Below, piece after piece: positions 1,800 through 49,053 of a stretch of 58,789 nt of DNA. The stretch spans positions 1 to 58,789 of the forward strand of contig CALRCM010000003.1 of NCBI GenBank assembly GCA_943354555.1, in the 5' to 3' direction. The stretch comes from Candidatus Peribacteria bacterium (GTDB taxonomy: Bacteria > Patescibacteriota > Gracilibacteria > Peribacterales > Peribacteraceae). How positions within the stretch are numbered: position 1 is the first letter of the stretch; each line of letters opens with the position of its first letter. The notes below the pieces were generated by a model that was not told the origin of the DNA, did no database searches, and was given only the letters and a program-made list of their open reading frames with translations. Position numbers and translations under genes: made by a program.

Positions 1800-1834
1800 T
1801 TCTCCATTCTCAATTCTCCATTCTCAATTCCTCC
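1798..1834 (-). repeat. Heptamer tandem array, right arm (inverted copy)
   Basis: aattctcc attctca attctcc attctca attc is the reverse complement of the left-arm units. Confidence 0.9.
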
Positions 1835-3396: not shown

Positions 3397-3414
3397 CTTC
3401 AATACTCTAACAGG

Positions 3415-3601
3415 TGGCGGGGCCCCGCGCGCTACGGGGGGTGAAGGGGAAGGCCCTGCTCTGCGCCGCAGCGCTGTCGAGATGGAAACGCCGAATCCTT
3501 GTAGGCGTTTCCAGCGAGACGCAGGGCCGAGCGGAGGAGAGTTGGCGCGCGGAGAGTTTTTCTTTCCCCCTTTCTTTTGTCTGGCTGACAAAAGAAAGGG
3601 G
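3415..3601. repeat. GC-rich structured intergenic element ending in a perfect hairpin
   Basis: CCGCGCGC...GCGCGCGG and GGAAACGCC...GGCGTTTCC stems, then CCCCTTTCTTTTGTC-TGGCT-GACAAAAGAAAGGGG (3567-3601). Confidence 0.5.
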
Positions 3602-8800: not shown

Positions 8801-10182
8801 CAGACATTGTCGAAAGGCTATTGCGGGAATTCCGCGTTCCCGAATACGTCGAGCTTTTTGGGCCATTACAGGAATTCAATGCCCGGACCTTGCCCCGTCT
8901 TTTGCCGGAAGCTTCAAGAGACCCACGCCATCGTGACCTTCAGGATTCCAACGAACATTCGGCTCGCATGTTCTACTTCATCGGAAGCAGAATGCTTCAA
9001 GAACAACATCTTCGTGATGAAGATAATGCGCTCGACACCATGCGGGAGCGGTACGGCGAATCGTCTCATGTGAATATGACAGGCGGCACCTCGTTGATGA
9101 ATAATCTTTCCTCCGGAATCGAAGATGATGGGTCGCTGGATCGACGATCTCAGCTACGAGACTTTGGCAACCGGCTACCGGATTTTCAGCAACACGTTGA
9201 CCAGTGGCGCCTCGACGATGTTCCGCTGGGTCCAATCGGGGGCCGCTGGCACTTCGGAAATCCCGTGACCAACCGTCATTTAGAGCTCTTTACGCATCTC
9301 CTCTCTCTTGGACGCACACCTTTCCGCATGATCCATAGCAATGAGTCGCTAATCATCCCAGGATTTATGAGCAAGAACGAAATGCGCATGTTCATCTTGA
9401 TGCTTGCGATGGAAGGGCTTATTGATCCAAAGCAGCCGGAACTCCAGATCGGAATTACCGGACGTCTCGCGCCTGAGCTTTGTGCCTATTTTGGGAGCTC
9501 CTGCATGCTCGGGACGGCAGATTGCGCCGCCTTCAAGCTCGATTCCTTCGTTCCAGAGTCAAAGCCAAACCATGAGCTGACCGCTGCGCGCATCGTTGCG
9601 TACGATGCATATCCGGAATCAGAGGGGAAGCGACGCAACTTCGAACTCCCTTTTATGTTCCAGGGGTCTCCGGAAATGGGAAACGTACCGGGACGCACGG
9701 ACATCCTCGGACGGTGGAACGTACGATGGAATACTTCAACCAAACCCGATCTCTTTACGATGGATGACCTCGACATCACGCATATAGTTGGATCGGCGCT
9801 CCGTCACGTGCAACATGGAGGACCACTCAAAGAAGCAGGCTTGGCGTATATGGAGCGCCACCGGGAGATCCTGGAGCGCTACGGTATCACCGATACTTTG
9901 GATGCCCCCTGGGTCTATACCCGTGTCCACGAAGCCTACGAAGACTCTTCGAAGAACCCGGAGCACTTTAACCGATGCGTGAAAGCCTGTATGGATGTTC
10001 ACTTTGCCAGCGCAGAGAGCTTTTCTCATGGAACGGGAGCAGTCTTTGAAGTACGAAAAAACATTGACACACTTATGCGTCAAGCGGAGACTATAGGCAA
10101 AGAAGTCTTGAGGGATCCGCGCTATGAAAACGATGTCCGCGCACTCCTCCAGGCAAGGACCTACGAATCCCTCCATTCTTAA
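5863..10182 (+). CDS. Large hypothetical protein (1439 aa)
   Basis: Long uninterrupted ORF; no family recognised. Confidence 0.8.
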   Translation: MPRDLLSYRWQEEYVSHPPEGERYDVWHYRSLIQQACNLPNKPPHDLTPEIADEIRFVRNDIAIALPENFSRRDAFSLFLTHENPMGTYYMLDDLGDIAYDQEKELAAIQSSSYLPGYWDLEPKELMDSYHRSLDPQKKKREGSVDFPTNDRVSIRLGIRRTQKPAPKQVVEGLFYEQFFSDEWNWEYGAPQLFAAIEKNLESRTVTDDPFEWVQERISIAAGYSILGGGKECSPPFLAQAYERMASTVCNGIPVGHEEFREYEIGEEEQNLLIELYGRYASSLSPEMVEFVMAHAVVLTPQILRESEHIKKFLTHLPEMLSNGLNIDRVFEYAIEPTKESGTGLQRLESALRMTMSIYRGEKPWWFKEDFSMSEWLQEDDGHETNGRLRLHNNQLGRATLERIAQRAGFAFTHVLEPYHAVGYRMGSLPPFTEEDAIDFTAFVTEHYGIGNRRRSIEVIRNCLYILEQEALPLRHERLKNLREHLDEVKPQTHTIGRLEARDPVFEMPGVHVLTATMLRRSLAESMEVHDLRIGFDILEAIDEKFQEPLEVRARTYAPALPSHLANMQRRGLLINQSPEARLALPIPEGHLLANVERRNPSLGIFDFYAQLKQECGQVNRDVAKIYFQHCAARMPDPWHPPKGFLRFLELFDFINTPGWRFTAMEHPRDRPKVSEQNQRREVAKQMLVSNMLDAWIMGLLTSEELEALCRWITAELTDEERIEIEKDVLWSQNDDLAKLNLPLPPPVAEDEPEDIELLTHGRISSYMRRQLRRPLPPKPVPTEEEREQEAMERLEMNVRSECQQREQRIRSQRMVALQETFTMLSVLNSMAIAGSFSIAELRSVLRETVLPAAIRGADQGTGEVHAIQQGAMLTNLVRMQELGGIDHQGFRSAIEGSASPEEARKTAYDFIQQVLLRCMEESLNEALPNAINTVTSVMKAHAGKPDTAEGALARAVGQARKDLETELRRIWNDAPFAAPDIVERLLREFRVPEYVELFGPLQEFNARTLPRLLPEASRDPRHRDLQDSNEHSARMFYFIGSRMLQEQHLRDEDNALDTMRERYGESSHVNMTGGTSLMNNLSSGIEDDGSLDRRSQLRDFGNRLPDFQQHVDQWRLDDVPLGPIGGRWHFGNPVTNRHLELFTHLLSLGRTPFRMIHSNESLIIPGFMSKNEMRMFILMLAMEGLIDPKQPELQIGITGRLAPELCAYFGSSCMLGTADCAAFKLDSFVPESKPNHELTAARIVAYDAYPESEGKRRNFELPFMFQGSPEMGNVPGRTDILGRWNVRWNTSTKPDLFTMDDLDITHIVGSALRHVQHGGPLKEAGLAYMERHREILERYGITDTLDAPWVYTRVHEAYEDSSKNPEHFNRCVKACMDVHFASAESFSHGTGAVFEVRKNIDTLMRQAETIGKEVLRDPRYENDVRALLQARTYESLHS

Positions 10183-10914: not shown

Positions 10915-11046
10915 ACGTGTAAGAATCCCTCCTTCCGTTCGTCTACTACGTTACAGGTCCCCCCAACACTACTATTTTCAATAATAGTAAAGATGGGGGG
11001 CTTGCTACACTTCGGTGTCTGCTCTTATTTTCTTACGCTCACTTCT

Positions 11047-13755
11047 ATGGTTCGCGCTCCTGTAAGATTATCCTCCATTGTTGCCTTAGCTCTTAGCCTC
11101 GGCATCATCGCCCCGGCATTGGCGTTCTCCGATGTCTCATCGAAGACTCCCTATAACCGCGCGATCAATGCGCTGCAGGAACAGGGTGTAGTGGAAGGAT
11201 ATGGAGACGGATCATTTAAAGCAGCAGCCCGTATCAACCGTGCAGAGTTTTTGAAGATCGTCCTCGAAAGCCGTGGTGATATCGCAGATCTGAAGAATTG
11301 TTTTCCAGATGTGAAGGATCAGTGGTTTGCAAACTATGTCTGTAGCGCAAAATCAGAGGAGATCGTCGCGGGATACCCAGACGGGACATTTAAGCCGGAG
11401 CAGGAGATCAACTTTGTCGAAGCAAGCAAAATTCTCGCTCTCGCCTACGGTCAGACCATCGAAGCAAACTCTCCGGACTGGTACGAGCCCTATGCACGCG
11501 CATTGGAATCTTCCTCGGCAATCCCACCCTCTATCAATGGTCTTGATCAACGATTGAATCGTGGAGAAATGGCCGAGATGATGTGGAGACTGAGTAGCGA
11601 CATACAGGATCAGCCGACGAAGGGCTACATCAATGTGAAGTACCCCGAGGTGCAGGTAAATCTTGCGAGCTATGTTCCGCAAATGGCGAAGTCCTGTGTC
11701 GATCTGCGCGCATTCACGGAAGAGGCAGGTCGCAGTGCAGGAGGATACGGAACAGACATGATGATGCGCGAAGGCACAATGGCTCCGGCATCCGGCGCAC
11801 CCATGAACGACAGCGGCGAGTCCAACACGAAATCCGCGGATTACTCGGAAACAAACGTTCAGGTCGAAGGTGTCGATGAAGGAGATATCGTCAAGACTGA
11901 CGGCGAATATCTCTATATCGTCCGTAATCAGGAGATCCGCATCGTGGACGCGACGCCGGCAAGTAATCTGCGCAATGTCGCAACGATTGCCGTGGATGAT
12001 GCGTCATTCTCCCCGACCGATCTCTATGTCGAAGGCGATCGCCTCGTCGTCATCGGCACCACGTGGGAAAATGGCGGCGGCAAAGTACGGATCATGGAAG
12101 ATTTAGGAACGAGGAACCAAGAACTAGCTACGAAGATGGCCTCGATGATCTGGCCTGGGCCATGGTACAACCGCTCGTACACAACCGTAAAAATCTATGA
12201 TGTGAGTGACGCTGCGAATCCAAAGCTCTCCCGCACGGTCTCCTTCGAGGGATCTTCCGTAAGCACACGCCGCATAGGTGACAAGCTCTACGTCGTTGTA
12301 AACCAATCTCCCCGCTACTGGGGTGGATTCGACAGGCTCACCACAGGTGGCCCGATGCCGATGGGTACTGCGATAAAAGAAGCAGATCTTGTGCCGACCA
12401 TCAAAGATTCTGCAAAAGGCGATACCGCAATGCCTGCAGTCGGCTGCAACGACGTCATGATTCTTCCAAGAGTCCCCTCCCCGAGTTACCTCATTGTCGG
12501 TGTTGTTCCTTTGAACAACAGCACAGGAGAAGTACAACGGACAGCAATCCTCGGCAATGGAGAGAATGTCTACGCCTCACTGGAGAATCTCTACGTCGCT
12601 GCGACAGACTGGCAGTACGCATGGAACAATGCGGTAGAAAATGCATCGCAGCAGCGCACGCGTCTCTATCGTTTTGCCTTCACGAGCGATGGCGCCAAGT
12701 TCCAGGCACAAAGCCAGGTTCCTGGGCGTATTCTCAATCAATTCTCTATGGATGAGGCTTCGACAGGGCTCAGCCTGACACCCTACTTCCGCATCGCAAC
12801 GACCATCGACGAACAGTGGATGGCCAATAACACGTCACGCGCATCCAGCAACAATCTCTACGTGCTGAATCGTGACATGGAGACAGTGGGATCACTCGAA
12901 GACCTCGCTCCGGGTGAGAAGATCTACTCGACTCGGTTCCTCGGCGACCGCGCCTATATGGTCACGTTCCGTACGATCGATCCGCTATTTGTCATCGATA
13001 CGTCTGATCCAAGAAATCCCAAGATTCTCGGCAAGCTGAAGATCCCGGGATATAGCGATTATCTGCACCCGTACGATGAGAACCACATCATCGGATTTGG
13101 GAAAGACGCTGAAGCCTCTAAGGATGGAACGTTTGCGTGGTACTTGGGCATAAAAGTCGCGCTGTTTGATGTCACCGATGTGGCAAACCCGAAGGAGCTG
13201 CACAAGATCGCAATCGGCGACCGCGGGACGGAAAGTCCACTCCTCCACAATCACAAAGCACTGCTGTTTGACCGCGAAAGAGATCTCCTCGCGTTTCCAG
13301 TAAATATCCATAAGATCAGCGACGCCCAAAAGCAAACGGGCGAACAAGCAATGGCCTACGGCGAACCCGTTTTCCAAGGTGCACAGGTCTATACACTCAC
13401 TCTCAAAGACGGCTTCAAGCTCCGAGGACAGATCACACATTACTCAGACACCGATTGGCAGAAGGCAGGAAGCTATGTGTATGGCAAAGACATTGAACGA
13501 ATTATCCGCGTTGGCGACTCGCTCTACACCACTTCGCAATGGGGCGTAGTGAGCGCCACCGAAGACACGGTAAAGAAAGAGGGATCAGTACCCTTCGATA
13601 TCCCGTCGCCTGTCTCTGGCGGATCGTGCCCGGACGAATCTGATCCCAACGTACACTACGTAAGCAAGGATCCGGACGAATGCATGCGCGTGCGATTCTC
13701 ATGCATCCCCGGTACAGAAGGATTCAGTGATATGTGCGGGTGCGGGTGTAAGTAA
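11047..13755 (+). CDS. Secreted S-layer-homology (SLH) + beta-propeller domain protein
   Basis: Signal peptide (ALA-FSDV), SLH repeats (GVVEGYGDGSF..INRAEFLK; GYPDGTFKP), beta-propeller family motifs YSETNVQVEGVDEGDIVKTDG, NQFSMDE, YMVTFRTIDPLFVID, LKIPGYSDYLHPYDE; Cys-rich tail. Confidence 0.9.
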   Translation: MVRAPVRLSSIVALALSLGIIAPALAFSDVSSKTPYNRAINALQEQGVVEGYGDGSFKAAARINRAEFLKIVLESRGDIADLKNCFPDVKDQWFANYVCSAKSEEIVAGYPDGTFKPEQEINFVEASKILALAYGQTIEANSPDWYEPYARALESSSAIPPSINGLDQRLNRGEMAEMMWRLSSDIQDQPTKGYINVKYPEVQVNLASYVPQMAKSCVDLRAFTEEAGRSAGGYGTDMMMREGTMAPASGAPMNDSGESNTKSADYSETNVQVEGVDEGDIVKTDGEYLYIVRNQEIRIVDATPASNLRNVATIAVDDASFSPTDLYVEGDRLVVIGTTWENGGGKVRIMEDLGTRNQELATKMASMIWPGPWYNRSYTTVKIYDVSDAANPKLSRTVSFEGSSVSTRRIGDKLYVVVNQSPRYWGGFDRLTTGGPMPMGTAIKEADLVPTIKDSAKGDTAMPAVGCNDVMILPRVPSPSYLIVGVVPLNNSTGEVQRTAILGNGENVYASLENLYVAATDWQYAWNNAVENASQQRTRLYRFAFTSDGAKFQAQSQVPGRILNQFSMDEASTGLSLTPYFRIATTIDEQWMANNTSRASSNNLYVLNRDMETVGSLEDLAPGEKIYSTRFLGDRAYMVTFRTIDPLFVIDTSDPRNPKILGKLKIPGYSDYLHPYDENHIIGFGKDAEASKDGTFAWYLGIKVALFDVTDVANPKELHKIAIGDRGTESPLLHNHKALLFDRERDLLAFPVNIHKISDAQKQTGEQAMAYGEPVFQGAQVYTLTLKDGFKLRGQITHYSDTDWQKAGSYVYGKDIERIIRVGDSLYTTSQWGVVSATEDTVKKEGSVPFDIPSPVSGGSCPDESDPNVHYVSKDPDECMRVRFSCIPGTEGFSDMCGCGCK

Positions 13756-17373: not shown

Positions 17374-18615
17374 ATGGGCAGGCTAATGACAGTATTTCTG
17401 ACATTTATGTTTATAGGCGTTGCGGGATTTTTTGCAACGCAGAAATATATTCTTGAGCCTCTGAATGGAAAAAATTTGCTTGGACAAACCCCCCCACCGG
17501 TTCCTGCCGCATGCCTTCCTCCGATTTCCAATGGCTGTGCATGCGCAACAAGCATTAACTGTGCAGTATCGGGAACCTGTCAAAGAGCATCATGCATGAA
17601 AGATTTTTACAATGGGGCTTGTGTCTATCCGACGACGCAGATCCCTTATATTGCCTGGTGTTATCACTCGATGACGCAGTGCAATAATACGGAGAAGGAC
17701 ACACAGTGTAACTGGAAAGCATGCAGGGCTCCGGCTCCAAGCAATACATGCAGCTGCGTGTTGGATTATCCGACCGGAGCAGCCTGCGCCGGAGGGGCAA
17801 CACTCGTTGGGGGAGGATTTCAGACAAAGGCTGCATGCAATACTTTTTGCTCCACGCTGCCTCCACCACCAGTGCAGTGCGGAGGAACGGGCACTTCATG
17901 CAATGGAGGATCATGCCCAATGGGTCAATCATGCAGCGGTGCTGCAGGGGTGGCTTGTGGATGTGTAAATAACACTCCGCCCCCTCCCCCACCACCAGTT
18001 TGCGGTGGACCCATTTCAGCATGCGGTGGAACATGTCCTGTCAGCGGAGAAACATGTAGGAATGTTAATGGAGCATGTGCCTGCGCAGCTCCACCAAATT
18101 GTAGAGCTGCAGGTCTTTCCTGTACCAATACAGGAGGAGCTTGCCCTCCAGGCACGAGCTGCAGAAGGCAAAGTGGCTCTTGTGGATGCCACCCGATTAC
18201 CCCTCCCCCACCGCCAGCATGCCCTGCACATACAAAAGCAGGCGAGCCCGTTGAAGTTTGTGGAGTTTCAGGGCCAGCTCTGGGCACTCCTGGCTGGAGA
18301 GTCAATAGCCCCCCTGTAGCAAACTTTATTGCAGGTTTAGTCAATGATGCTACTTCAGCTGCTGAAAGAAGATGTGAAACTGTACCTACAGCTGCATGCA
18401 ATGGGGGTTGTAAACCCGACACCGTGGGTCATCCGACGACAGGAAAAGTGCCGTCACTGTCTTCAAACGTAGGTCCATTCGACGTCAGAGACGATGGTAG
18501 TATTTTCTGCAATGGTGCCTGGATGAATGTAATGCCTGCAAAAACTAATTCTGCACAAAAAGCGAAGTATATTCGCGCAACCTGTAACGTAACCCTGTAC
18601 TGCATTCCGAACTAA
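17374..18615 (+). CDS. Membrane-anchored Cys-rich protein with 6-Cys repeats and poly-Pro spacers
   Basis: N-terminal TM; about 42 Cys by manual count. Confidence 0.8.
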   Translation: MGRLMTVFLTFMFIGVAGFFATQKYILEPLNGKNLLGQTPPPVPAACLPPISNGCACATSINCAVSGTCQRASCMKDFYNGACVYPTTQIPYIAWCYHSMTQCNNTEKDTQCNWKACRAPAPSNTCSCVLDYPTGAACAGGATLVGGGFQTKAACNTFCSTLPPPPVQCGGTGTSCNGGSCPMGQSCSGAAGVACGCVNNTPPPPPPPVCGGPISACGGTCPVSGETCRNVNGACACAAPPNCRAAGLSCTNTGGACPPGTSCRRQSGSCGCHPITPPPPPACPAHTKAGEPVEVCGVSGPALGTPGWRVNSPPVANFIAGLVNDATSAAERRCETVPTAACNGGCKPDTVGHPTTGKVPSLSSNVGPFDVRDDGSIFCNGAWMNVMPAKTNSAQKAKYIRATCNVTLYCIPN

Positions 18616-29154: not shown

Positions 29155-30399
29155 ATGCCATGTACGGAGATAGATATATCGGAATCACCAGTGGAGGAGG
29201 CGCCTTTTATAGCTGCACCAGAAACATCTTCGGAAATGATCTGGGAGATTGTGCAGGAAGATGTTGCGGAGCAACATATATCTTCTCCCGAGAACATTCT
29301 GCCATCCGTAGAAGAACCACAGGATGATAGATGCACACAAGAACCTTGCCAAAATCGCATAGACATTGATCCCGCACATGCCATCGCACTTCTCAAGTCC
29401 GGACAGCTCGCTGCATATAGAGCAGCAATCGGCGTTCTTCAGGAAAGTGCGAACCAGTATCGCGTCAGTGCGAAGGATGTCCGCGGAGCACTCGGGCGCA
29501 GCAAAGCAGGGCTCTGCGATGCAGGAACGTCACTATGGGTTTTTCTCACGCAACCGGTATGGATCGTACGAAAGAATGCCGAGCCTCGTAAGTACAGCCG
29601 CGGTACGCTCTTTGTCCTCGACACGGTGCGCTTTGGCGGTACGTTTGCCGCACTTTTCACGGCTATTTTTCTCACGCTGAACTATCAGAGCTTCTGGGAA
29701 ATCGTGCGTAGCAATATCCGGCCTATCCACTCCGTGCAAAACGAGCAGATGCTCGTATCAACAGTCGATGAGGCTCTCCGCAACAAGCTGATGAAAAGTC
29801 CTGCTCTTGCAGTTGCCGGCCGGAGTGCCGGAGATCTTCTGAGCTTCCTCCCCGAAGTGGGACCGCCCGACAACCGCATCATCATCCCGAAGCTCAATAT
29901 CAATGTTCCACTCGTCACACCCTCCTACCAGAATCTCCTGCAGGAAAACTGGGCGGGAGTGGAGGAGGATATCCAGTCCTCACTCCAGCACGGCGTTGTC
30001 CACTACCCGGGTACCGCGCGTCCGGGGCAAGCGGGAAACTTCTTCGTCACGGGCCACAGCTCCTACTATCCGTGGGCACCGGGAAAATACAAGAATGTCT
30101 TTGCACGCCTTCACGAGATGGACGTCGGAGACGAGTACTGGGTCTACTATGGTGGCGACCGCCACCGCTACAGAGTGGTAGAAAAAAAGGAAGTCAGGCC
30201 GAGCGATGTTACCGTGCTCGACCAGCCCCTCAGTCATCGAACTGCAACCCTCATGACCTGCACTCCGGTCGGTACGACCTTACGCAGACTCATCGTCACA
30301 GCAGAGGAAATTGATCCCCTCACAGGAGTGGCTCTGGATGTAGGAGAACAGGGGGAGCGCCAAAAGCAAAAACTCAATGTGGAGCAGTTGCCGATATAG
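29155..30399 (+). CDS. Sortase with long N-terminal extension and TM anchor
   Basis: GVVHYPGTARPG..GNFFVTGHSS (His), TLMTCTP (Cys), RRLIV (Arg). May start at ATA 29083. Confidence 0.92.
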   Translation: MPCTEIDISESPVEEAPFIAAPETSSEMIWEIVQEDVAEQHISSPENILPSVEEPQDDRCTQEPCQNRIDIDPAHAIALLKSGQLAAYRAAIGVLQESANQYRVSAKDVRGALGRSKAGLCDAGTSLWVFLTQPVWIVRKNAEPRKYSRGTLFVLDTVRFGGTFAALFTAIFLTLNYQSFWEIVRSNIRPIHSVQNEQMLVSTVDEALRNKLMKSPALAVAGRSAGDLLSFLPEVGPPDNRIIIPKLNINVPLVTPSYQNLLQENWAGVEEDIQSSLQHGVVHYPGTARPGQAGNFFVTGHSSYYPWAPGKYKNVFARLHEMDVGDEYWVYYGGDRHRYRVVEKKEVRPSDVTVLDQPLSHRTATLMTCTPVGTTLRRLIVTAEEIDPLTGVALDVGEQGERQKQKLNVEQLPI

Positions 30400-32635: not shown

Positions 32636-33478
32636 CTATTCTCCGTACACCTCCTCCGCAAGCACGATGATCTTTGCGATTTCTGCGCGATTGATAGAAT
32701 CGTTTGGACCGAATGCACCCGTAGCGCTGCCATTCGCATCGGTATAACCGCCGACAATGTGATCCTCGTGGGCGGTGATGATAGCAGAGCGAAACTCTGA
32801 AGAGCTGTCCACGTCGCTGAAGGGACTTGCATCGGAATCACGGAATGTCACTCCATAAGCCTGCAGGACAGTGACGACAACTTCGGCTCGATTTGCGGGA
32901 CGAGTAGGTTCAACCGATCCATCGGCAAATACCGTCCAGTGCAGCGTCTCTGCACAGCGCAAGTACTCCTCAGACCATGTCCCCTTCGCCGCTGTATTGA
33001 GAATAGTTTTTGCACATGCACTACGATCAATACCAGCGGCTACGCTCACAATCTTGGCAAGTTGTTCGATCGTAACAGAATCCGCAGGACCAAACAGTCC
33101 AAGTGGCCTGCCATCTTCACTGCGGTATCCGGAAATAATTCCGCTGTCTGCTGCGGCGCGCACGTATGGTGCAAACCAACCATCACGTGGTACATCCGAG
33201 AGATCGACGGAAACACCGTCAATACGAATTTGCACAAACGGCGAATCACCTACATCCCCTGAGGTACGGTCTACCTCTACGGTCGATGCATCAACGGGCA
33301 GAAGATCTGACGAGGAGAGATCTTTGCGATCGCCTGTATCCCAATCGGCCTGCTGATCCATACGGAGCAGATCCTCGTCGAAACGATCAATATCATCTAC
33401 AAGATACTCCAGAGAGTCAGCTGCAAAGGAAAACGTAGTCGGAATACATACCAATAGGGCAATTGCAAGGAGGCGCAT
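32636..33478 (-). CDS. Secreted SLH-domain protein
   Basis: Signal peptide MRLLAIALLV..SFA; SLH repeats DVPRDGWFAPYV..GIISGY and FGPNDSINRAEIAKI. Confidence 0.88.
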   Translation of the reverse strand: MRLLAIALLVCIPTTFSFAADSLEYLVDDIDRFDEDLLRMDQQADWDTGDRKDLSSSDLLPVDASTVEVDRTSGDVGDSPFVQIRIDGVSVDLSDVPRDGWFAPYVRAAADSGIISGYRSEDGRPLGLFGPADSVTIEQLAKIVSVAAGIDRSACAKTILNTAAKGTWSEEYLRCAETLHWTVFADGSVEPTRPANRAEVVVTVLQAYGVTFRDSDASPFSDVDSSSEFRSAIITAHEDHIVGGYTDANGSATGAFGPNDSINRAEIAKIIVLAEEVYGE

Positions 33479-33505
33479 ACAGAAGTGTATGCACGAACCG
33501 AGTAA

Positions 33506-33537
33506 ATTTTCCATTTTCTATTTTGCATTTTCCACTT
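33506..33537 (+). repeat. Single-arm heptamer array (ATTTTCC-like) in divergent promoter region
   Basis: attttcc attttct attttgc attttcc acttcc. Confidence 0.7.
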
Positions 33538-39192: not shown

Positions 39193-39513
39193 ATGACAAA
39201 GAAGACATCTTCCGCGGCAGTGAACTTCAAGATCCTCATGTTGGGGTCTGCAACGGTAGCGAGTGCTTTTTTCGTCGGTATTCAAACGGCCGGAGATGTC
39301 CAACCCATCTCCCTGATCGAAGCAGGTGGTGCAATCACGGGTGATATAGACAATAGCGGCATGGTCGACGAAAACGATGCCATAGCCATTCTTGAAATGG
39401 TGCAAGGATATCGTGATATCACTCCGGACGCTTTGCACAGAGACCCCAACCACGATGGCATCTTCACCATAGATGATGCCATCCGCATCCTGACTATTAT
39501 CGGGGACCAATAA
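39193..39513 (+). CDS. Membrane-anchored dockerin-like protein
   Basis: TM helix then duplicated EF-hand-like loops GDIDNSGMVDENDAIAIL and DPNHDGIFTIDDAIRIL. Confidence 0.8.
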   Translation: MTKKTSSAAVNFKILMLGSATVASAFFVGIQTAGDVQPISLIEAGGAITGDIDNSGMVDENDAIAILEMVQGYRDITPDALHRDPNHDGIFTIDDAIRILTIIGDQ

Positions 39514-39518
39514 CACCT

Positions 39519-41135
39519 ATGAAATCACACACACAAACTACCATCGCTCTCCTCCTCGCCGGAATCATCCTGATAGGATCCCCGTCACAGGTATATGGGA
39601 TGGGAACGGAAACCAGCATCGTCCTTCGACCCCACTGTCTTATGGGATACACAGAAGATAATAGGATCTTGGATGAAGGAGGAGATGCAGAAGCAATCCA
39701 GTGCCCAAGCTTCTCCATCGAAGATCCTCAGACACTGAGAACACCTGAGCTCCGTGTGGGCGATATACTTGATATCGACATCGTCGTGGAGAACCCGAAC
39801 AAGGCAGAGATTACGCGCATACGTTCCTGGCTCTCCTACGATCCCGCAGTACTGAAGGGAGATGAAGTAACCATCAACGAAGCACTACCCATTGTCACCC
39901 CGGGTGAAGACGGATTTTCGGAAACAGAAGGGTACGTAAAGATCGAAGGATCTGCTGATGGTAGTGGTCCCAAGGATATTCAAGTTCTTGTTGCGCGTGT
40001 GCAGTTCACCGTGCTCAAGCCCATGCCTGCAGGAACAGTCATTACATTCTACGATGTCCAGAAAGATGGCCACACAACGGTCGTAACAGGAATAGGAGAG
40101 GAACAGGAGCACATCATCACCCGTGAACCAGGCGCACTGCACGTGATGCTCGCACAAAGTGAGACAGAGGAAGCACCTGACCCTTCGACTGCTGAGATAC
40201 CAACTGTTGAATCCAATCTCGAACCAGTCGCAGAGGATCCACCAGCCACACCCTCCTCTGCTGCAAGCTCTTCGTCGGAAGCTCCTGAAACGGTACTTCT
40301 CTCTGATGGTGAGGCCTGCATCACTAGTCCACAATGTCGATCCAGCCATTGCAATCAGGGTGTATGTCAGGCTGCAGGAGCTCTCATTCCCGATGGAGGT
40401 GCATGTGGGGAAAACACTCAATGCCATAGCGGACAATGCTTCAATAACACCTGCGTCGGCACTACGACCTCATCGTCATCCCCGCTTTCACCAATCGGCG
40501 GAGCCTGTCTCAGTAGCGCACAATGCCTCAGCGGACTGTGTGCCGATGGCTTCTGTATTCCTTCGCTGGATGCCCAGAGACAGCAGGGCCCATCTTCCGC
40601 CGCTGTCGCTTCTGCTCCAAGTGCTGCATTCGGGCTTCTCCAAGTACAGAATGTGCGAATTACAACAGAGGGAACATCCGTGTACCTCGGATGGGAGGCA
40701 CTGAAATCCTCACAACTCCAAGGATACAATATCTACTACGGAACAACGACAGGAAGATACATTCAGAGAAAAACGGTTAATGGCAATGTGCAGAGCCTTG
40801 CGATCCGGTCGCTCCCTGCAGGGACGACCTATTACTTCTCACTGCGGGCTGTGAGTCTTTCCGACCAAGAAAGTGCCTTTAGTGGAGAAGTCGCCGTGAC
40901 GGTGGGTGACCCGAAGACGGCAACTGCGCCACTGGCTGCAGGGTCGATCCCGAGTGATGACAGTCCCGGAAAAAATCCGGTGCTGGGGAGTGTCACGCAG
41001 GATGGCGGAACGGTTCCTGGTGAGACGGGCATCCCGTCTACACTCGCGCTTCTCGCACTCATCTGCGCAATGATCGGAACAGGATTTGCATCCCGTAGAC
41101 AAATGGTCGCGCTTACCACTGTTGATCAAGCATGA
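39519..41135 (+). CDS. Secreted cohesin-like + Cys-rich repeats + FN3 protein with sortase-type C-terminal signal
   Basis: Signal peptide; VGDILDIDIVV..LSYDPAVL..ARVQFTV (cohesin-like); three C-x5-C-x3-C-x4-C repeats; FN3 (LGWE..GYNIYYG..L.AGTTYYFSLRAV); VPGETG-hydrophobic-RR tail. Confidence 0.78.
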   Translation: MKSHTQTTIALLLAGIILIGSPSQVYGMGTETSIVLRPHCLMGYTEDNRILDEGGDAEAIQCPSFSIEDPQTLRTPELRVGDILDIDIVVENPNKAEITRIRSWLSYDPAVLKGDEVTINEALPIVTPGEDGFSETEGYVKIEGSADGSGPKDIQVLVARVQFTVLKPMPAGTVITFYDVQKDGHTTVVTGIGEEQEHIITREPGALHVMLAQSETEEAPDPSTAEIPTVESNLEPVAEDPPATPSSAASSSSEAPETVLLSDGEACITSPQCRSSHCNQGVCQAAGALIPDGGACGENTQCHSGQCFNNTCVGTTTSSSSPLSPIGGACLSSAQCLSGLCADGFCIPSLDAQRQQGPSSAAVASAPSAAFGLLQVQNVRITTEGTSVYLGWEALKSSQLQGYNIYYGTTTGRYIQRKTVNGNVQSLAIRSLPAGTTYYFSLRAVSLSDQESAFSGEVAVTVGDPKTATAPLAAGSIPSDDSPGKNPVLGSVTQDGGTVPGETGIPSTLALLALICAMIGTGFASRRQMVALTTVDQA

Positions 41136-41707
41136 GCACGATCCATCCCCACTGGCATTCAACGGATGACGCACCGGTACCGGTGCGAATCGTAAGCCCA
41201 AAAGCTCCCGATGCGGTGCACATCGGATCTGCACGTGTCTCCCGCAGTCCAGCAGCAATTCTCGGAATCATGCTTGCCGTAGCCATAGGTGCTGTTTCCT
41301 ACGGAACTCTCGATGACACGAAAAAAGAACTCACAGGAGACATTACAGGAAATGAAGTACCCACAAGCGCATTCGATATCCTTGCAAGACAAATCGCTGA
41401 GGAAGCACTGCAAGATTCAATAGCAAATGGTAATTCCGAAGCTGCCCCGTGGGCAGCAATGTCCAATACACAGAGTGTTCCCGAGCGTCCAGCAACGAAT
41501 AATGTTTCGGTACAATCTCCTAGTGCCATCATCCCGACCAATACCAATACCGCTGCACTCGGTGCGGAGTTCGGTAGCATACACAGCGCTGCACCCCGAC
41601 CATTTTCGCAGCCCGAGAGCGGTGCAGGAATGATCCTCGCTACTCTCACCGGAGCCTTTGCCATGCTGCTCGTCATCGCAAGAAACACACTCAAGATACA
41701 AGCGTAA
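41132..41707 (+). CDS. Membrane protein with possible sortase signal (QPESG)
   Basis: Internal TM, low-complexity stalk, QPESG-hydrophobic-R/K tail; ATGA overlap with the previous gene. Confidence 0.65.
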   Translation: MSTIHPHWHSTDDAPVPVRIVSPKAPDAVHIGSARVSRSPAAILGIMLAVAIGAVSYGTLDDTKKELTGDITGNEVPTSAFDILARQIAEEALQDSIANGNSEAAPWAAMSNTQSVPERPATNNVSVQSPSAIIPTNTNTAALGAEFGSIHSAAPRPFSQPESGAGMILATLTGAFAMLLVIARNTLKIQA

Positions 41708-42559: not shown

Positions 42560-44509
42560 ATGCATCTGCCCCGTCCTACGAAATGCCAAGGCATCACAGC
42601 AGGGGGAATTCTCTTGGCGTTGATCGTCATTGTGTATGGACGTGTCACCGAATATCCATTCGTCCGATGGGATGATGGAATGCTCATTTATGACAATCCG
42701 GCCATACGATCAATAAATCTCCAAACGCTCAAAACTATCTTCACGACCTATGATCCTGAGCTCTATGTGCCATTTACTTTGCTCAGTTACCAGATCGATT
42801 TTCTCATCGGGGGAATACGCCCGGCAATCTATCACTTTCAGAATATCCTTTGGCATCTCTCTAATGCAGTCCTCCTTACCTGGCTTCTCTTTTGGCTTTT
42901 TGTCGCCCGTAATACGATGGAGAAGTCTCAGGTGTCTATGGGGTGGATTGCTCTTATGCTGGGCTGTCTCTTCGCTGTACACCCGATCAATGTAGAAGCC
43001 GTCGCATGGGCAAGTGCAAGAAAAGATCTGCTTTCCACGTTCTTTGCATTAGCAGCAATGCTCGGCTATCTGCCGTGGATCAGTAGCGGAAAACGCTGGT
43101 GGTACTATGCATCCCTTATCCTTTTCACTGCGGGGCTACTGAGCAAGGTGACGATTATCACACTTCCGCTGATGCTCATGGTAATCGATCTCTGGTGTAA
43201 GCGACCATGGAGCAAGGAAGTATTTCTGGAAAAGATTCCTTTCTTCCTGCTGTCACTTGTCTTCGGCACCATAGCTATCTTTGGAAAATCGTCTCAGCTT
43301 CTGAGCGTTACTTCGTGGGAGACTGTCTTGGTTATCGGAAAAGCAATCATGTTCACCCTAGGTACATGGATGGTACCGCTCCACCTTTCCGTCCTCTATC
43401 CGTACAACGCTGCTATCACTCTAGCATCGCCCGCGTTCGCCCTGCCGATCATCGGCCTCCTTGGACTCTTCGCTCTCCTCAGTATCCTAGCATATAGGAA
43501 GCATACTTTTGCGCCTCTGCTCTGCATAATGCTCTTCCTCCTTCCCCTCCTTCCCAGTCTGCTAAATTTTTCCAAGGGAGGAACGATATATATTTCTTCG
43601 GACCGTTACGCCTATCTCCCCTCTCTAGGGATCCTGCTCGGCATCGGACTTTTTATGGAGAAATTTGTTCGTACGCACGTCAGAGCAGTCCTTGTTCTAG
43701 CAGGAATTTTGATAACTACTGCAACCGGGCTTGCCATACTCCAAACAAAAACGTGGGCGGGAAGTGAGCAACTTTTTTCCCATGTCCTGAAGAACTATCC
43801 AGATGCACACGTCGCTCACAACAACCTCGCAAATTATTTGAGCGAGCGTGCACGTACCGAGGGGAATATTGCTCTGGCCATTACGGAATACGAACATGCA
43901 CTTGCCATCAACAGCGCAATGCCTGAGAGCAAAGAACGAAATAATGCACGCAGCAAGATCCTCAGTAATATGGCGTCGGCGTACCGACAAAGCGGAGACA
44001 TATCATTGGCTCGGACGCAGTACCGCGAGGCTCTGCGATGGAGCCCGGTTAACCCCTATGCTCTAGTGGGTCTGGGAATCCTGGCAGGGCTCGAAGGTGA
44101 TCTCGGTGAATCCGAACGCCTGTACACTACGACACTCACTACGGCACCGCACTTCTCGCCTGCGTACCTGAATCTCGGAAGCCTGTATGCATCCGTAGGT
44201 AAATATCCGGAGGCACTTACTGCCTTCGATGAAGCCATCGACATCGATCCATTTTTGCCGCAGGCACACTACAACCGCGGCGTAATTTTGCAGAAGGTTG
44301 GGAAAGTATCTGAGGCGCGCATAGCCTATCGCAATGCCATCGATCTCGCCCCATCGTTCGTTGTGGCACGAATTAATCTCGGCATTCTGGAGGCAAGGCG
44401 TGGAAAGTACGCAGATGCTGCCGCACAATTCACAGAAGTCCTGCGTATTGATCCTGAGAATGCAAAAGCAAAAGAAGCCTTATGGGAGATACAATTAATG
44501 AACAAATAA
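42560..44509 (+). CDS. TMTC-like membrane glycosyltransferase with TPR repeats
   Basis: FVRWDD, YDPELYVP, HPINVEAVAWASARKD, DRYAYLP, about 7 TPRs; paralog of 1810-3396. Confidence 0.82.
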   Translation: MHLPRPTKCQGITAGGILLALIVIVYGRVTEYPFVRWDDGMLIYDNPAIRSINLQTLKTIFTTYDPELYVPFTLLSYQIDFLIGGIRPAIYHFQNILWHLSNAVLLTWLLFWLFVARNTMEKSQVSMGWIALMLGCLFAVHPINVEAVAWASARKDLLSTFFALAAMLGYLPWISSGKRWWYYASLILFTAGLLSKVTIITLPLMLMVIDLWCKRPWSKEVFLEKIPFFLLSLVFGTIAIFGKSSQLLSVTSWETVLVIGKAIMFTLGTWMVPLHLSVLYPYNAAITLASPAFALPIIGLLGLFALLSILAYRKHTFAPLLCIMLFLLPLLPSLLNFSKGGTIYISSDRYAYLPSLGILLGIGLFMEKFVRTHVRAVLVLAGILITTATGLAILQTKTWAGSEQLFSHVLKNYPDAHVAHNNLANYLSERARTEGNIALAITEYEHALAINSAMPESKERNNARSKILSNMASAYRQSGDISLARTQYREALRWSPVNPYALVGLGILAGLEGDLGESERLYTTTLTTAPHFSPAYLNLGSLYASVGKYPEALTAFDEAIDIDPFLPQAHYNRGVILQKVGKVSEARIAYRNAIDLAPSFVVARINLGILEARRGKYADAAAQFTEVLRIDPENAKAKEALWEIQLMNK

Positions 44510-45575: not shown

Positions 45576-47540
45576 TTATTTTCTTGAATCAGGAAATTTA
45601 TCGGGGCTTTGCAAACACTCAAGCATTCGCTCCTCCATCTCGACTTCAAGAGAAAGTTTGATCTGATCGATGGTCATAGTATCTGGATCAAATTTTTCAA
45701 TGAAGGATGTAAGCATACTATAGCCAATATTGCCGACTTGCCTTTCTGTAGCTGTAGATTTTCCTCTGTCATCACGAAAAAGATTCTCCGCAAGCTTATA
45801 CACCCAAATCATCTGGAACCTTCTCAGCCAATCAACAAAACCGCGGTAATCATATACATTCTGTCGTCCCTGTTCCTTTGCCCAATCGACACAGCGCTTT
45901 CTACGTAAAACTTCTTGAGCAGATTTCTCCGTAATCTTGGGTTTTGAAGCTTTGCCTTGGCTCGGAGTTTGGTGTGGAATGCCGAGAGCATTCATGACAG
46001 CTTCACGGATCTTCGGTTGCGCGTAGTCTCGTATAAGATGACCGTCTCTGGAGGACACATAGGTGGTAAATGTTTCTCTGAGCACAGATAAACCTGCATT
46101 ATAGGCATCCTGCCATTTTGGATGATCAGACCCTACATGGTTGTGGACCTCTTGGCGTACATGATTACTGAAATTCAGCTCAGCAAGCTCTAAAGCCCGC
46201 TTGTAGTTAGGAATGCTTGTACCCGTAGCAAGTGCTAGCCAGGCAATGAATTGTTTTGCCTGCTCTGCAGCGGAACTTTCTGGAGCTGGTTTTTGCGCGG
46301 CAGAAGCATCACTCACCAATGCAAAGAGAGCGGTACTCTGAGGATCTTCCGTAACCGGTGCAGCAACGGGCGAATCGCTAGACTGAGGAGATATTGTGAC
46401 ACTCTTATCCTCAGCAATCACCGTTTTAGGACTGGATGCCACTAAGGAGGGAGATGCTCCATGGCTACCTTGAAATTTTTTATACTGAGCCGGCAAAAGC
46501 AGATAGTGGCGACATGTTAGTGCGATGGAACGTTTTGGAGTTTCAAGAAGTCCCTCATCAACTCTTAGAAGAAACGTACGGATCATATTGTCGGTCCATT
46601 TTTTCCAGTTACCCTTCGGTTCCTCAATAGTGAATGTAGGTGATGCAGGGAGCATTTCATCAGGTTCGACAGCGGGAGAAATTGCCTCTGGAGCAGGAAT
46701 TTGCTTTTGAGGAATTGGTGGTTCGGAAGAAGGTTGCGACGAGGCTGCCATCTTCACTGGAGGTTGAGGCGAATGTCCTGCCGGAAGTTTTTCTGCATGT
46801 AGTTTTGCCGGCTGAAGAGAGGCAGCACCCACTACTCTAGCAGGCTCCGCCGTATGCGTTGGGACTGAGGGCTGAGAGGCAGGAGGCACTGGTGAAGATA
46901 TGCTTGTCGCTCTTGCCTGCAGACGTATGTACCGTGCGAATTTTCTTACAGCTTGAATCGCATCGTGGGAATGCCCCATGTCTACTGCCTTTTGATCAGA
47001 ATACTGATCAAGCACAACCAGAATTTTTTTTGCTCTTTCTGTAGTCAATTTCACTCCTCTTCCGCAAAGAGGACCCAACTGTTCTAAAGCTCGCTCAAGA
47101 CCACTAGCGGTTCTGAGCTCACTATCATTTGGCCCCTTTATTGCCTCATCCCAACCGTCACGCTGACGATCGGACTTGGGTGCATCTGCAAATCCATCCT
47201 CCTCCTCCAGTTCAATCTGCACGCCAAGTTCTCGCAGCTCAGCGACTTTCACATGGTTTTCAATCACATTGTCTCTGGTGACCGCTGCGACCTGACTCCG
47301 AAAATCCTCTACAAGCTGAATCACCTCCCGCCCATGCTCTGCTACAGCCGCTCTTGCATCTTTCTGCACCGCATGAAGAGCATCCAGAACTCTCGCAATC
47401 GGCATCTGGCCGATATGTGTACGCCGATCGGCCTCTGACTGAATATCCGCAAGAACACGCTCCAGATCGGACATATGAGGCCTTGGAGATGGATGATGAG
47501 ACATGGCCGAAAAGAATAGCGAAATGCCGCTGTAAAACAA
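45576..47540 (-). CDS. Hypothetical protein with two sigma-70 region-2-like modules
   Basis: QDAYNAGLSVLRETFTTYVSSRDGHLIRDYAQPKIREAV and RQVGNIGYSMLTSFIEKFDPD; Pro/Ser-rich linkers; true start probably downstream of 47540. Confidence 0.7.
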   Translation of the reverse strand: MFYSGISLFFSAMSHHPSPRPHMSDLERVLADIQSEADRRTHIGQMPIARVLDALHAVQKDARAAVAEHGREVIQLVEDFRSQVAAVTRDNVIENHVKVAELRELGVQIELEEEDGFADAPKSDRQRDGWDEAIKGPNDSELRTASGLERALEQLGPLCGRGVKLTTERAKKILVVLDQYSDQKAVDMGHSHDAIQAVRKFARYIRLQARATSISSPVPPASQPSVPTHTAEPARVVGAASLQPAKLHAEKLPAGHSPQPPVKMAASSQPSSEPPIPQKQIPAPEAISPAVEPDEMLPASPTFTIEEPKGNWKKWTDNMIRTFLLRVDEGLLETPKRSIALTCRHYLLLPAQYKKFQGSHGASPSLVASSPKTVIAEDKSVTISPQSSDSPVAAPVTEDPQSTALFALVSDASAAQKPAPESSAAEQAKQFIAWLALATGTSIPNYKRALELAELNFSNHVRQEVHNHVGSDHPKWQDAYNAGLSVLRETFTTYVSSRDGHLIRDYAQPKIREAVMNALGIPHQTPSQGKASKPKITEKSAQEVLRRKRCVDWAKEQGRQNVYDYRGFVDWLRRFQMIWVYKLAENLFRDDRGKSTATERQVGNIGYSMLTSFIEKFDPDTMTIDQIKLSLEVEMEERMLECLQSPDKFPDSRK

Positions 47541-47628: not shown

Positions 47629-49053
47629 TTACTCTGTAACAAGCTCTTTCTCGAGCATGGCGTGCAAATGTGCACGGAATAGTTTCTTGGTGGAATTCGG
47701 CGGATTAAATGATTCGATTGCACGTTGCAGAATTGCATCGGAAACTTTCTGTAGAGCAGGGGTTTTCAGAGCTTTAATGCCCGCCTTACGAAGAATAGCC
47801 ACACTGTCAGACTTTGCGATATTCGCATAGGTGTTTCTCAGATGATCCTGAGCATCGGCAAACGTATGTACAAAGGAGCCGTCTTCCTGTTTTTTCACAT
47901 AATCAATGTATCTATCTTTTCTGATGCTCTCAGCCAAAGCTGCGGCATCGATTACTTCATCATCCCCATGCGTGGTAGTAGTAACTGAAGATGCTTCAGC
48001 AGAAGTCATTTCAGCAACAGTGCCCGAGGGGGATCTTCGCGTAGCAGCATCCAATATCCGCTGCCTCTTTCTTGATACTGTCTTGGGTGGAGGATCCACA
48101 GGAACACTATCCTGATGCTGTGCACTTTCCTGAACAGGAACTATAGGATCATCGCTGACCGATACAACATCACTCTCAGAAGATTGCTCTAGAGTGGGAA
48201 TGCTCTCTGGAACTGAAGATGCATCGACCTGTACAGAAGATGTATCCAACTTAGGGGTAGGGGAAAGTGCAGCCGTTTCTCCTTGGGTGGCAAACGGTTC
48301 TTCAGCAGCAAGACTGGCAACCTGAGCATCAGCAGCCACTGCCTGCACATCTAGCTGTTGCATAGCAATCCATTCCAGATCTATTGCCGCAAACACCAAT
48401 GGGTGAGCGTACTGGGTGAATATTTCACCATGCTTATCGGGGTCGAAAGCATCGATACAACTCCTGAGAGTTCGATATGCCACTTGCTTGAGTCTTTGAT
48501 ATTCAGCCTCAACATTGGTCTTATCATGTGCGTAACCGAAAACTACAGGAAAGCTTAATTTTGCCCTTCGCGCTTTATTGAGGGCAGAATGCATAGGTGG
48601 CCTCGATACATTTTCCACTGTAAAATCCGGTTCTTGTCCTAGACCTGAAACTCTGGGCCGTCCCAGTGGTTGGTACCGTGCCCACCCGCGTTCAATACCT
48701 TGTCTCACGCATGCATCCAAGTCTCCCAATGCAGGATCGTAAAACCAAATGGCACGCGCTGCATTATTGCGGGCATTATCTCTGTACCCCTGACGAACCC
48801 GATCTGGCTCCCCATGCACATGCTCTTCCGTAAGCTCATCTGCTAGAGAAAGATATGGAAGCAAAAGTGCGGCAACGGTCTCCTCATGAGAGGCGCAGTC
48901 TATGCCCTGTGCGAACGCCCACCGATGGAGTGTTTCGATGTTTTGCTCAGATGGCAGTGGATCGCCATCCGCAATGATTCTCGTTATGCTTGCTGCAGTG
49001 TGAGGAGTAAGAGGTTTGCGAAAATGGGAAGATAGGCGACCATCCACAGGCAC
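47629..49053 (-). CDS. Hypothetical protein with up to three sigma-70 region-2-like modules
   Basis: AARAIWFYDPALG, LKQVAYRTLRSCIDAFDPDKHGEIFTQYAHPLVFAAI, LQKVSDAILQRAIESFNP. Confidence 0.7.
   Translation of the reverse strand: MPVDGRLSSHFRKPLTPHTAASITRIIADGDPLPSEQNIETLHRWAFAQGIDCASHEETVAALLLPYLSLADELTEEHVHGEPDRVRQGYRDNARNNAARAIWFYDPALGDLDACVRQGIERGWARYQPLGRPRVSGLGQEPDFTVENVSRPPMHSALNKARRAKLSFPVVFGYAHDKTNVEAEYQRLKQVAYRTLRSCIDAFDPDKHGEIFTQYAHPLVFAAIDLEWIAMQQLDVQAVAADAQVASLAAEEPFATQGETAALSPTPKLDTSSVQVDASSVPESIPTLEQSSESDVVSVSDDPIVPVQESAQHQDSVPVDPPPKTVSRKRQRILDAATRRSPSGTVAEMTSAEASSVTTTTHGDDEVIDAAALAESIRKDRYIDYVKKQEDGSFVHTFADAQDHLRNTYANIAKSDSVAILRKAGIKALKTPALQKVSDAILQRAIESFNPPNSTKKLFRAHLHAMLEKELVTE

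Follow-up and report, generated by a model that had tools for sequence, protein, structure and literature searches.

A dockerin, a cohesin–FN3 protein and a stalk protein encoded side by side across the Peribacteraceae: a possible calcium-dependent clamp between membrane and wall

Contig CALRCM010000003.1 of an ultra-small Candidatus Peribacteria bacterium (assembly GCA_943354555.1), the whole of which (58,789 nucleotides) is referred to here as the window, carries a trio of closely spaced genes for a dockerin, a cohesin-bearing protein and a stalk protein. Gene 1 (39193..39513, 106 amino acids) encodes a hydrophobic helix and a stand-alone dockerin with no cargo domain; gene 2 (39519..41135, 538 amino acids) encodes a signal peptide, a cohesin, a linker, cysteine repeats, an FN3 domain and a sorting-type tail; and gene 3 (41132..41707, 191 amino acids) encodes an HPxW segment, a helix (helix 1), a low-complexity stalk, a QPESG motif, a second helix (helix 2) and a basic tail. 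All three genes lie on the plus strand, as do their features given below, and a check of the open reading frames (ORFs) bore out the tight linkage described in an earlier note on this DNA, with a gap of 5 nt between genes 1 and 2 and an ATGA overlap between genes 2 and 3. The source genome (1.16 Mb, 51% G+C, 93% complete) was compared with other members of its family in a set of 37 genomes that includes it. Genes 1 and 2 were each found in 36/36 of the other family genomes, and the trio is adjacent, in the same order and on one locus in 34/37, which argues that the association is not due to chance; the other three, G001, G002 and G011, have an assembly break within gene 2, and the flanking genes are found on the two pieces, which makes the gene order kept in 37/37 overall.

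A dockerin is defined by a duplicated calcium-binding loop plus helix with ligands at loop positions 1, 3, 5, 9 and 12, and this is what gene 1 encodes: in the family alignment, its product consists of a hydrophobic segment (residues 14-30, 39232..39282, with F26 and G29 invariant in 36/36) followed by two loop/helix repeats and nothing more. The dockerin domain spans 39340..39501, with the loops at 39343-39378 and 39442-39477; both repeats have Asp at positions 1 and 12 in 35/36 orthologues, and positions 3, 5 and 9 are occupied by D, N, S or T. Against the PDB, the family profile scores best with the dockerin 2y3n_B (E 1.8e-7), and some of its matches are EF-hand proteins. The structural model (predicted local distance difference test score, pLDDT, 90) has helices at 17-28, 35-39 and 50-62, the three-helix arrangement of dockerins, and when it was compared with known structures by VIA-align wide, the top 14 rows were all dockerins (best Z 10.4, root-mean-square deviation, rmsd, 1.6 over 60 residues), unrelated folds scoring at most 3.5. 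Judged by this model, gene 1 has a true dockerin fold. Since no orthologue has more than 14 residues downstream of the dockerin domain, gene 1 carries no cargo, and the description of a dockerin without an enzyme domain in the earlier note has thus held. Genome G012 contains a second, unlinked copy of gene 1 (L115:343-708), which has no first calcium loop. A motif located after the helix, [FLYTSMI]x[AG][DEQNS][VILT], was considered as a lineage-specific cleavage signal and rejected (21/161 against 15.7 +/- 3.4 in shuffled sequences).

The N-terminal domain of gene 2 (residues 30-213, 39606..40157) contains two invariant cysteines flanking an N-terminal insertion. Its Pfam Cohesin match is a narrow one (24.3 bits against a cut-off of 24.1), 30/36 members of the gene 2 family being matched by the same entry, and its model (pLDDT 94) finds only cohesins among the top 18 fold matches (best Z 13.8, rmsd 2.4 over 136 residues); the domain called cohesin-like in the earlier note has a true cohesin fold. 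The FN3 domain (40629..40907; fn3 E 3.7e-8) is the most conserved folded part of the protein, at 52% identity across genera. The Pfam scan, which covered 36 window proteins, therefore recovered two of the three domains that the earlier note had wanted checked in this way: the window gene 1 protein gave no Dockerin_1 match and a weak EF-hand match only, yet 29/35 of its family members match Dockerin_1 at E<=0.01. Between cohesin and FN3, the window protein contains the cysteine repeats that had been noticed earlier (three repeats of four cysteines, 40317..40556), but these are optional, occurring in 15/37 orthologues.

In the 93%-complete source genome, family profiles and Pfam together detect one dockerin and one cohesin, a 1533-aa S-layer-like protein with a weak profile match (domain E 0.15) having been left uncounted. 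Of the two traits that mark a cellulosome, neither is seen: there is a single cohesin instead of a scaffoldin with several, and the single dockerin is joined to no other domain, where a cellulosome would have dockerins on carbohydrate-active enzymes. The earlier description of the pair as non-cellulosomal and enzyme-free is upheld by these counts.

Gene 3 gave nothing notable in the Pfam scan and is mostly disordered (model predicted template modelling score 0.19; the best score of an Atlas structure search, 0.79, is a lead only). The stalk ending in QPESG (41609-41623), a membrane helix and a basic tail was correctly described in the earlier note, which had overlooked an additional N-terminal membrane helix, helix 1 (residues 41-57, 41252-41302). 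Across genera, helix 1 is 37% identical and the last helix 25%. The HPxW segment at the N-terminus is conserved, an N-terminal Trp is kept in 31/32 orthologues, Gly69 and Asn137 are invariant, and an H-x-G-A-P motif is usual. In most orthologues H-x-[GA]-A-P stands shortly before the sorting motif (window 41579-41596), and it recurs in two other tailed proteins of the source genome (C46:2897-5470 and C55:2423-2962). At least 16/32 orthologues have a cupredoxin-like domain inserted, the window's genus being without it, and in G011 the gene is split over two frames. Of the model proposed below, the part assigned to gene 3 is the least secure.

Both gene 2 and gene 3 end in the layout typical of sorting signals on exported proteins, that is, a motif, a hydrophobic helix and a basic tail: VPGETG, helix and RR in gene 2 (tail at 41016..41102, comprising PGETG, the conserved helix and RRQ), and QPESG, helix and basic residues in gene 3. 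Counted from the alignment column with the sequences aligned on the T|G junction, the gene 2 motif is x-G-x-[TSA]-G family-wide, with Gly at the site of the canonical LPxTG proline in 34/35; the Pro of VPGETG sits one position earlier than that proline and is kept in 18/35. The variant sorting-type tails of the earlier note are thus real, but the conserved motif is xGxTG and not the Pro-based VPGETG. In gene 3, Pro is present in 25/32 and is preceded by Gln in 21/32. Approximately ten other proteins of the source genome have similar C-terminal ends, four of them large with xGDTGP. These four surface proteins (808-2129 aa; C37:2966-9340, C13:18451-24840, C21:14639-18049 and C61:271-2697) end in xGDTGP, a helix and RR; they share the Gly-for-Pro motif of gene 2 and are candidate substrates of one sortase.

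A sortase with the expected His, Cys and Arg was placed by the earlier note about 10 kb upstream of the trio, and it is indeed there and intact (29155-30399, plus strand; PF04203, E 4e-23), a class-wide conserved enzyme whose H301, C369 and R378 are kept in 28/30 aligned sequences, the remaining two having gaps. It was matched in 41/41 genomes, and a sortase of any kind in 61/61. Of the NCBIfam models, TIGR01076 alone is passed (60 against 39.35 bits), those for sortase classes C, D, E and F giving 15-61 bits against cut-offs of 140-166. In the window enzyme the N-terminal extension is long and the membrane helix region (residues 152-183) strongly conserved, which is unusual for a plain anchor. 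The source genome has two further sortases, C2:49893-51095 and C23:15186-15956, the former fused to an N-terminal region that, judged by eye, is S-layer-homology-like. The nearness of the window sortase to the trio was considered as a sign of a dedicated enzyme and rejected: most family genomes have greA within a few kb of gene 2, mnmA adjoins the sortase in 21/25 loci of the family, and ftsK frequently shares the contig at no more than 35 kb, so that the 10-kb distance reflects ordinary family synteny and is uninformative. Sister-family genomes mostly have the sortase on a different contig or at a distance of 40-55 kb. We place the window sortase outside the gene set, as its likely processing enzyme.

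The sister families offer a view of what the trio may have been derived from. Of the 18 sister-family genomes matching gene 2, 13 were fetched; nine of these 13 have a cohesin-FN3-tail protein and four gave no cohesin match, and a phylum-wide sample added two more such genomes for a total of 11, all counted as sister-family genomes below. In 9/11, a large protein ending in one or two dockerin-type loops (read by eye in G049) is encoded upstream; these proteins measure from 493 to >1700 aa and contain Ig-like repeats wherever Pfam recognises them. A lipoprotein-type cohesin lies between the large protein and the tailed cohesin in 7/11, and a further protein with a dockerin end lies upstream in 5/11. 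In G048 (L051) the ORFs read through TGA under table 25, a code with which the expanded operon is unbroken; in G040 the contig ends just upstream of the cohesin gene, and in G053 no linked dockerin was found within 1.2 kb. In the phylum sample as a whole, the cohesin profile matched 15/251 genomes, seven of them from other classes. Given this expanded operon, the trio looks like the same operon without the cargo domains and the lipoprotein cohesin, as would a display operon reduced by the loss of its cargo, the direction of change being proposed without a rooted tree. In the ancestor, big Ig-repeat proteins would have hung by their dockerin ends on the lipoprotein cohesin and the tailed cohesin, and reduction would have followed later. 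Some family genomes sporadically encode large surface proteins in which dockerin-type domains occur internally and in tandem (L109, L110, L113, L114); it is possible that these are extra cargo for the cohesin.

Whether the two domains pair with each other was approached through their presumed interface. Cohesins bind through their 8-3-6-5 sheet (PMC5429695). Alignment to 1g1k and strand alternation, used in place of coordinates, suggest that four conserved residues of the gene 2 cohesin, R102 (35/37), W104 (37/37), K141 (28/37) and H185 (28/37), face outward on this sheet, and the same residues are largely kept in the sister-family and lipoprotein cohesins. On the dockerin, acidic residues are conserved at E68 (E/D in 31/36) and D94 (D/E in 28/36), positions that we take to belong to the dockerin recognition sites. 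The polarity of an acidic dockerin facing a basic cohesin would be the reverse of that described for Clostridium thermocellum (PMC5429695).

We propose that the trio is a core envelope module which acts as a same-cell, calcium-dependent clamp between membrane and wall, and not as a cellulose-degrading machine, a reading that we consider plausible though still short of probable. The gene 2 product would be exported by Sec, whereupon a sortase would cut its tail at xGxT|G and transfer the cohesin-FN3 stalk to peptidoglycan. The gene 1 dockerin would stay held at the membrane by its helix and bind the gene 2 cohesin with calcium on the same cell, thereby clamping membrane to wall, while gene 3 would serve as an accessory stalk held at both its N-terminal helix and its QPxTG tail, with the HPxW segment facing the cytoplasm. 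This model is supported by the two folds, by a single pair in the genome encoded 5 nt apart, by the fixed gene order, by the tails, by the intact sortase, by the conserved residues at the presumed interface and by the expanded operon of the sister families. Of the two tethers that the earlier note had envisaged, the membrane-to-wall one accordingly stays the leading reading, as an inference, whereas nothing among the results supports a tether from cell to host. More elaborately, and with decidedly more doubt, a cellulosome-type display system might have been turned into a trans-envelope clamp in which the dockerin is retained and free of cargo, the cohesin is wall-linked, the helices of all three proteins pack together, HPxW is cytoplasmic and the motif recognised by the sortase is a new one, xGxTG, that the giant Cys-rich surface proteins of the family also have.

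A number of observations weigh against the clamp, and they are set out here together with the rival explanations. In two genomes gene 1 itself is altered, being split over two frames in G004 and having lost the first calcium loop from its linked copy in G012. There is also the possibility that the dockerin does not stay in the membrane. Ala44, the last residue of a possible signal peptidase I site predicted from sequence (I42-E43-A44, 39316..39324), is present in 35/36 orthologues, with I, T, L, S or A at -3 and P or T at -7; in 30/36 it lies 15 residues past G29, whereas its spacing from the dockerin ranges between 7 and 18. A residue kept at a near-fixed distance from the helix and followed by a variable linker resembles a signal peptidase site, and cleavage there would free the dockerin. 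The freed mini-dockerin could then cap or stabilise the wall-anchored cohesin, which as a socket could also take occasional dockerin surface proteins, such as the extra dockerin-repeat proteins that several family genomes encode elsewhere; likewise, the large cargo of the sister families would presumably need release for display. No other dockerin was found in the source genome, however, and signal peptidase I usually cuts closer to the end of the helix than 15 residues. Moreover, the helix and the next 14 residues are 34-40% identical across genera, close to the 45% of the dockerin, which would be unexpected for a discarded peptide; the helix taken by itself is 35% identical, compared with 24% for the gene 2 signal peptide, 25% for the last helix of gene 3 and about 20% for shuffled sequences, which favours a retained helix. 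We put retention slightly ahead of cleavage at Ala44 and regard the capping scheme as unlikely, if far from negligible.

Other observations bear on the sortase step. Neither the gene 2 tail nor the gene 3 tail matched any LPxTG model of Pfam or NCBIfam, and neither ends in a canonical LPxTG signal, gene 2 having Gly at the proline site. In favour of the step, the pattern [PGA]x[TS]G before a C-terminal helix occurs in 6/18 candidate exported proteins against 1.1 in shuffled sequences (3/12 against 0.8), but it was picked post hoc, two of the six matches come from giant proteins whose tails are related, and shuffling gave as many as six. The tail helix of gene 2 is furthermore the most conserved helix, at 43.5% across genera, and this also fits a retained anchor. 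If there were no sortase step, the three products could assemble within the membrane as an integral complex, joined by their conserved helices and locked on the outside by the cohesin-dockerin pair, as might be expected from the 35-43.5% identity of the gene 1 helix, the gene 2 tail helix and helix 1 of gene 3 against 24-25% for control helices, from the 84% identity of RRQ and from the missing canonical Pro of gene 2. We find such a complex improbable in view of the dipeptide [TSAN]G, which stands just ahead of the helix in 35/35 gene 2, 32/32 gene 3 and 11/11 sister-family tails, with its Gly invariant, and in view of the tail being common to other exported proteins of the genome; besides, the sortase has a conserved membrane helix of its own, by which it could recognise that of the substrate. 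A pair acting in trans, with the cohesin or the dockerin binding a partner on a sibling or host cell, is in our estimation more improbable again. Peribacteria are indeed predicted symbionts with large surface proteins (PMC4736985), cohesins and dockerins are known from non-cellulolytic archaea and bacteria (PMC9012536), and a Saccharibacterium that depends on a host has an essential gene for a dockerin-domain protein (PMC10633639). Both halves are co-encoded here, however, the putative interface shows conservation over 31 genera instead of diversifying, and the dockerin, at about 20 residues from the helix, would if retained be too short to pass the wall. Finally, the folds could be real while the modules do not bind each other, each binding something else or being only structural. 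Dockerin-cohesin covariation (mutual information with average product correction, MI-APC, and identity-matrix correlation over 31 pairs) does not exceed a control in which the dockerin was paired with FN3: the top z was 4.9 for each, and r was 0.39 where the control gave 0.45. In addition, each domain has a net negative charge. Nevertheless, the one-to-one occurrence of the two domains, their adjacency in 37/37 family genomes and the presence of dockerin-loop genes beside the cohesin gene, not only in the nine sister-family genomes but also just upstream of it in 3/7 distant loci from other classes of the candidate phyla radiation (CPR), make this the least credible of the rivals.

Among known systems, the trio would by analogy work like a ScaE-type single-cohesin anchor with a dockerin partner, being neither a cellulosome nor a canonical LPxTG system. 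ScaE of Ruminococcus flavefaciens, like gene 2, combines a cohesin with a C-terminal sorting signal and provides a wall socket for dockerin proteins (PMC12484212), and its cohesin fold (2zf9) matches the gene 2 cohesin model at Z 9.6. Whereas ScaE takes scaffoldins and enzymes (PMC12484212), the sole dockerin here is cargo-free and has its own hydrophobic helix; the candidate partner is thus a bare 106-aa dockerin, large dockerin proteins filling that slot only in the sister families, and the xGxTG motif, the FN3 stalk and the third gene are additions with respect to ScaE. Single-repeat dockerins of group 2 in R. flavefaciens are truncated but functional (PMC12270676), and the sister-family giants mostly end in one loop likewise, while the window dockerin has both. 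A non-cellulosomal parallel is offered by NagJ and NagH of Clostridium perfringens, a cohesin-FN3 and a dockerin protein (2w1n, 2ozn), with FN3 coming after the cohesin on the single NagJ chain (2w1n, Z 12.4); both proteins are glycoside hydrolases, whereas no enzyme is found on either protein of the trio, and gene 2 has a linker between cohesin and FN3. An enzyme-free cohesin from a non-cellulolytic organism, that of Archaeoglobus fulgidus (2xdh), matches the gene 2 model at Z 12.2, and its gene is, we assume, adjacent to that of the dockerin. Archaeal pairs are reported to bind specifically (PMC9012536), but they belong to an archaeal envelope with no peptidoglycan sortase step. Within CPR bacteria, SEML1_0315 of Southlakia epibionticum is a dockerin-domain surface protein reported to be essential (PMC10633639); it comes from a different class, and the main text of that article names no cohesin or sortase.

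Peribacteria have been described as having peptidoglycan, S-layer genes, sortase and large Cys-rich exported proteins (PMC4736985), and sortase is found in over half of CPR (PMC6744442). Cohesins and dockerins go unmentioned in the passages of PMC4736985 drawn on here, including the second half of its Results, as well as in the main texts of PMC6744442 and of the Pam pilus preprint, and Patescibacteria are not mentioned in PMC11557425. Our literature search, whose coverage left out most subscription journals, found no paper describing this gene set. Enzyme-free cohesin-dockerin pairs and sortase-anchored single cohesins are known already, which limits the surprise; the novelty lies in a cargo-free dockerin kept family-wide, in a display operon that seems to have shrunk from a larger one, in the xGxTG motif and in helices that are conserved. 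How the CPR envelope is built and held together is largely unknown, and the module is kept in every family genome examined; being made of small soluble domains, it can be tested directly without culture. If the proposal is true, the job of this dockerin would be the link itself and not the carrying of cargo, a display operon having shrunk to its joint, and xGxTG, which standard models miss, would allow surface proteins to be annotated in these bacteria. For designer scaffolds, an acidic-dockerin/basic-cohesin pair might also be of use as a new orthogonal tool.

A Pam pilus operon of CPR would have PamA/PamB pilins and PamC/D chaperones close by; the neighbours of the trio in the window are holA, greA and a VIT-family gene. 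In the family loci as fetched, holA is divergent upstream of the trio in 26/37 and the VIT gene adjoins it in 6/37. A scan for promoters and terminators returned chance level only. A TMTC-like gene (42560-44509) was considered as a member of the gene set and rejected, being multi-copy and linked to the trio only in the window's genus and in G020. Its product and that of 1810-3591 are membrane-plus-TPR proteins, which presumably resemble TMTC-type glycosyltransferases; at E 1e-25, such proteins have seven matches in the source genome and occur in 34/36 family genomes and 0/24 sister-family genomes. Four large ORFs of the window have no convincing Pfam family, namely 5863-10182 (+, 1439 aa), 17374-18615 (+, 413 aa), 45576-47540 (-, 654 aa) and 47629-49053 (-, 474 aa). 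Two further window proteins contain S-layer homology (SLH) domains (10993-13755 and 32636-33514), one of them with a beta-propeller, and this is in keeping with an S-layered, single-membrane envelope.

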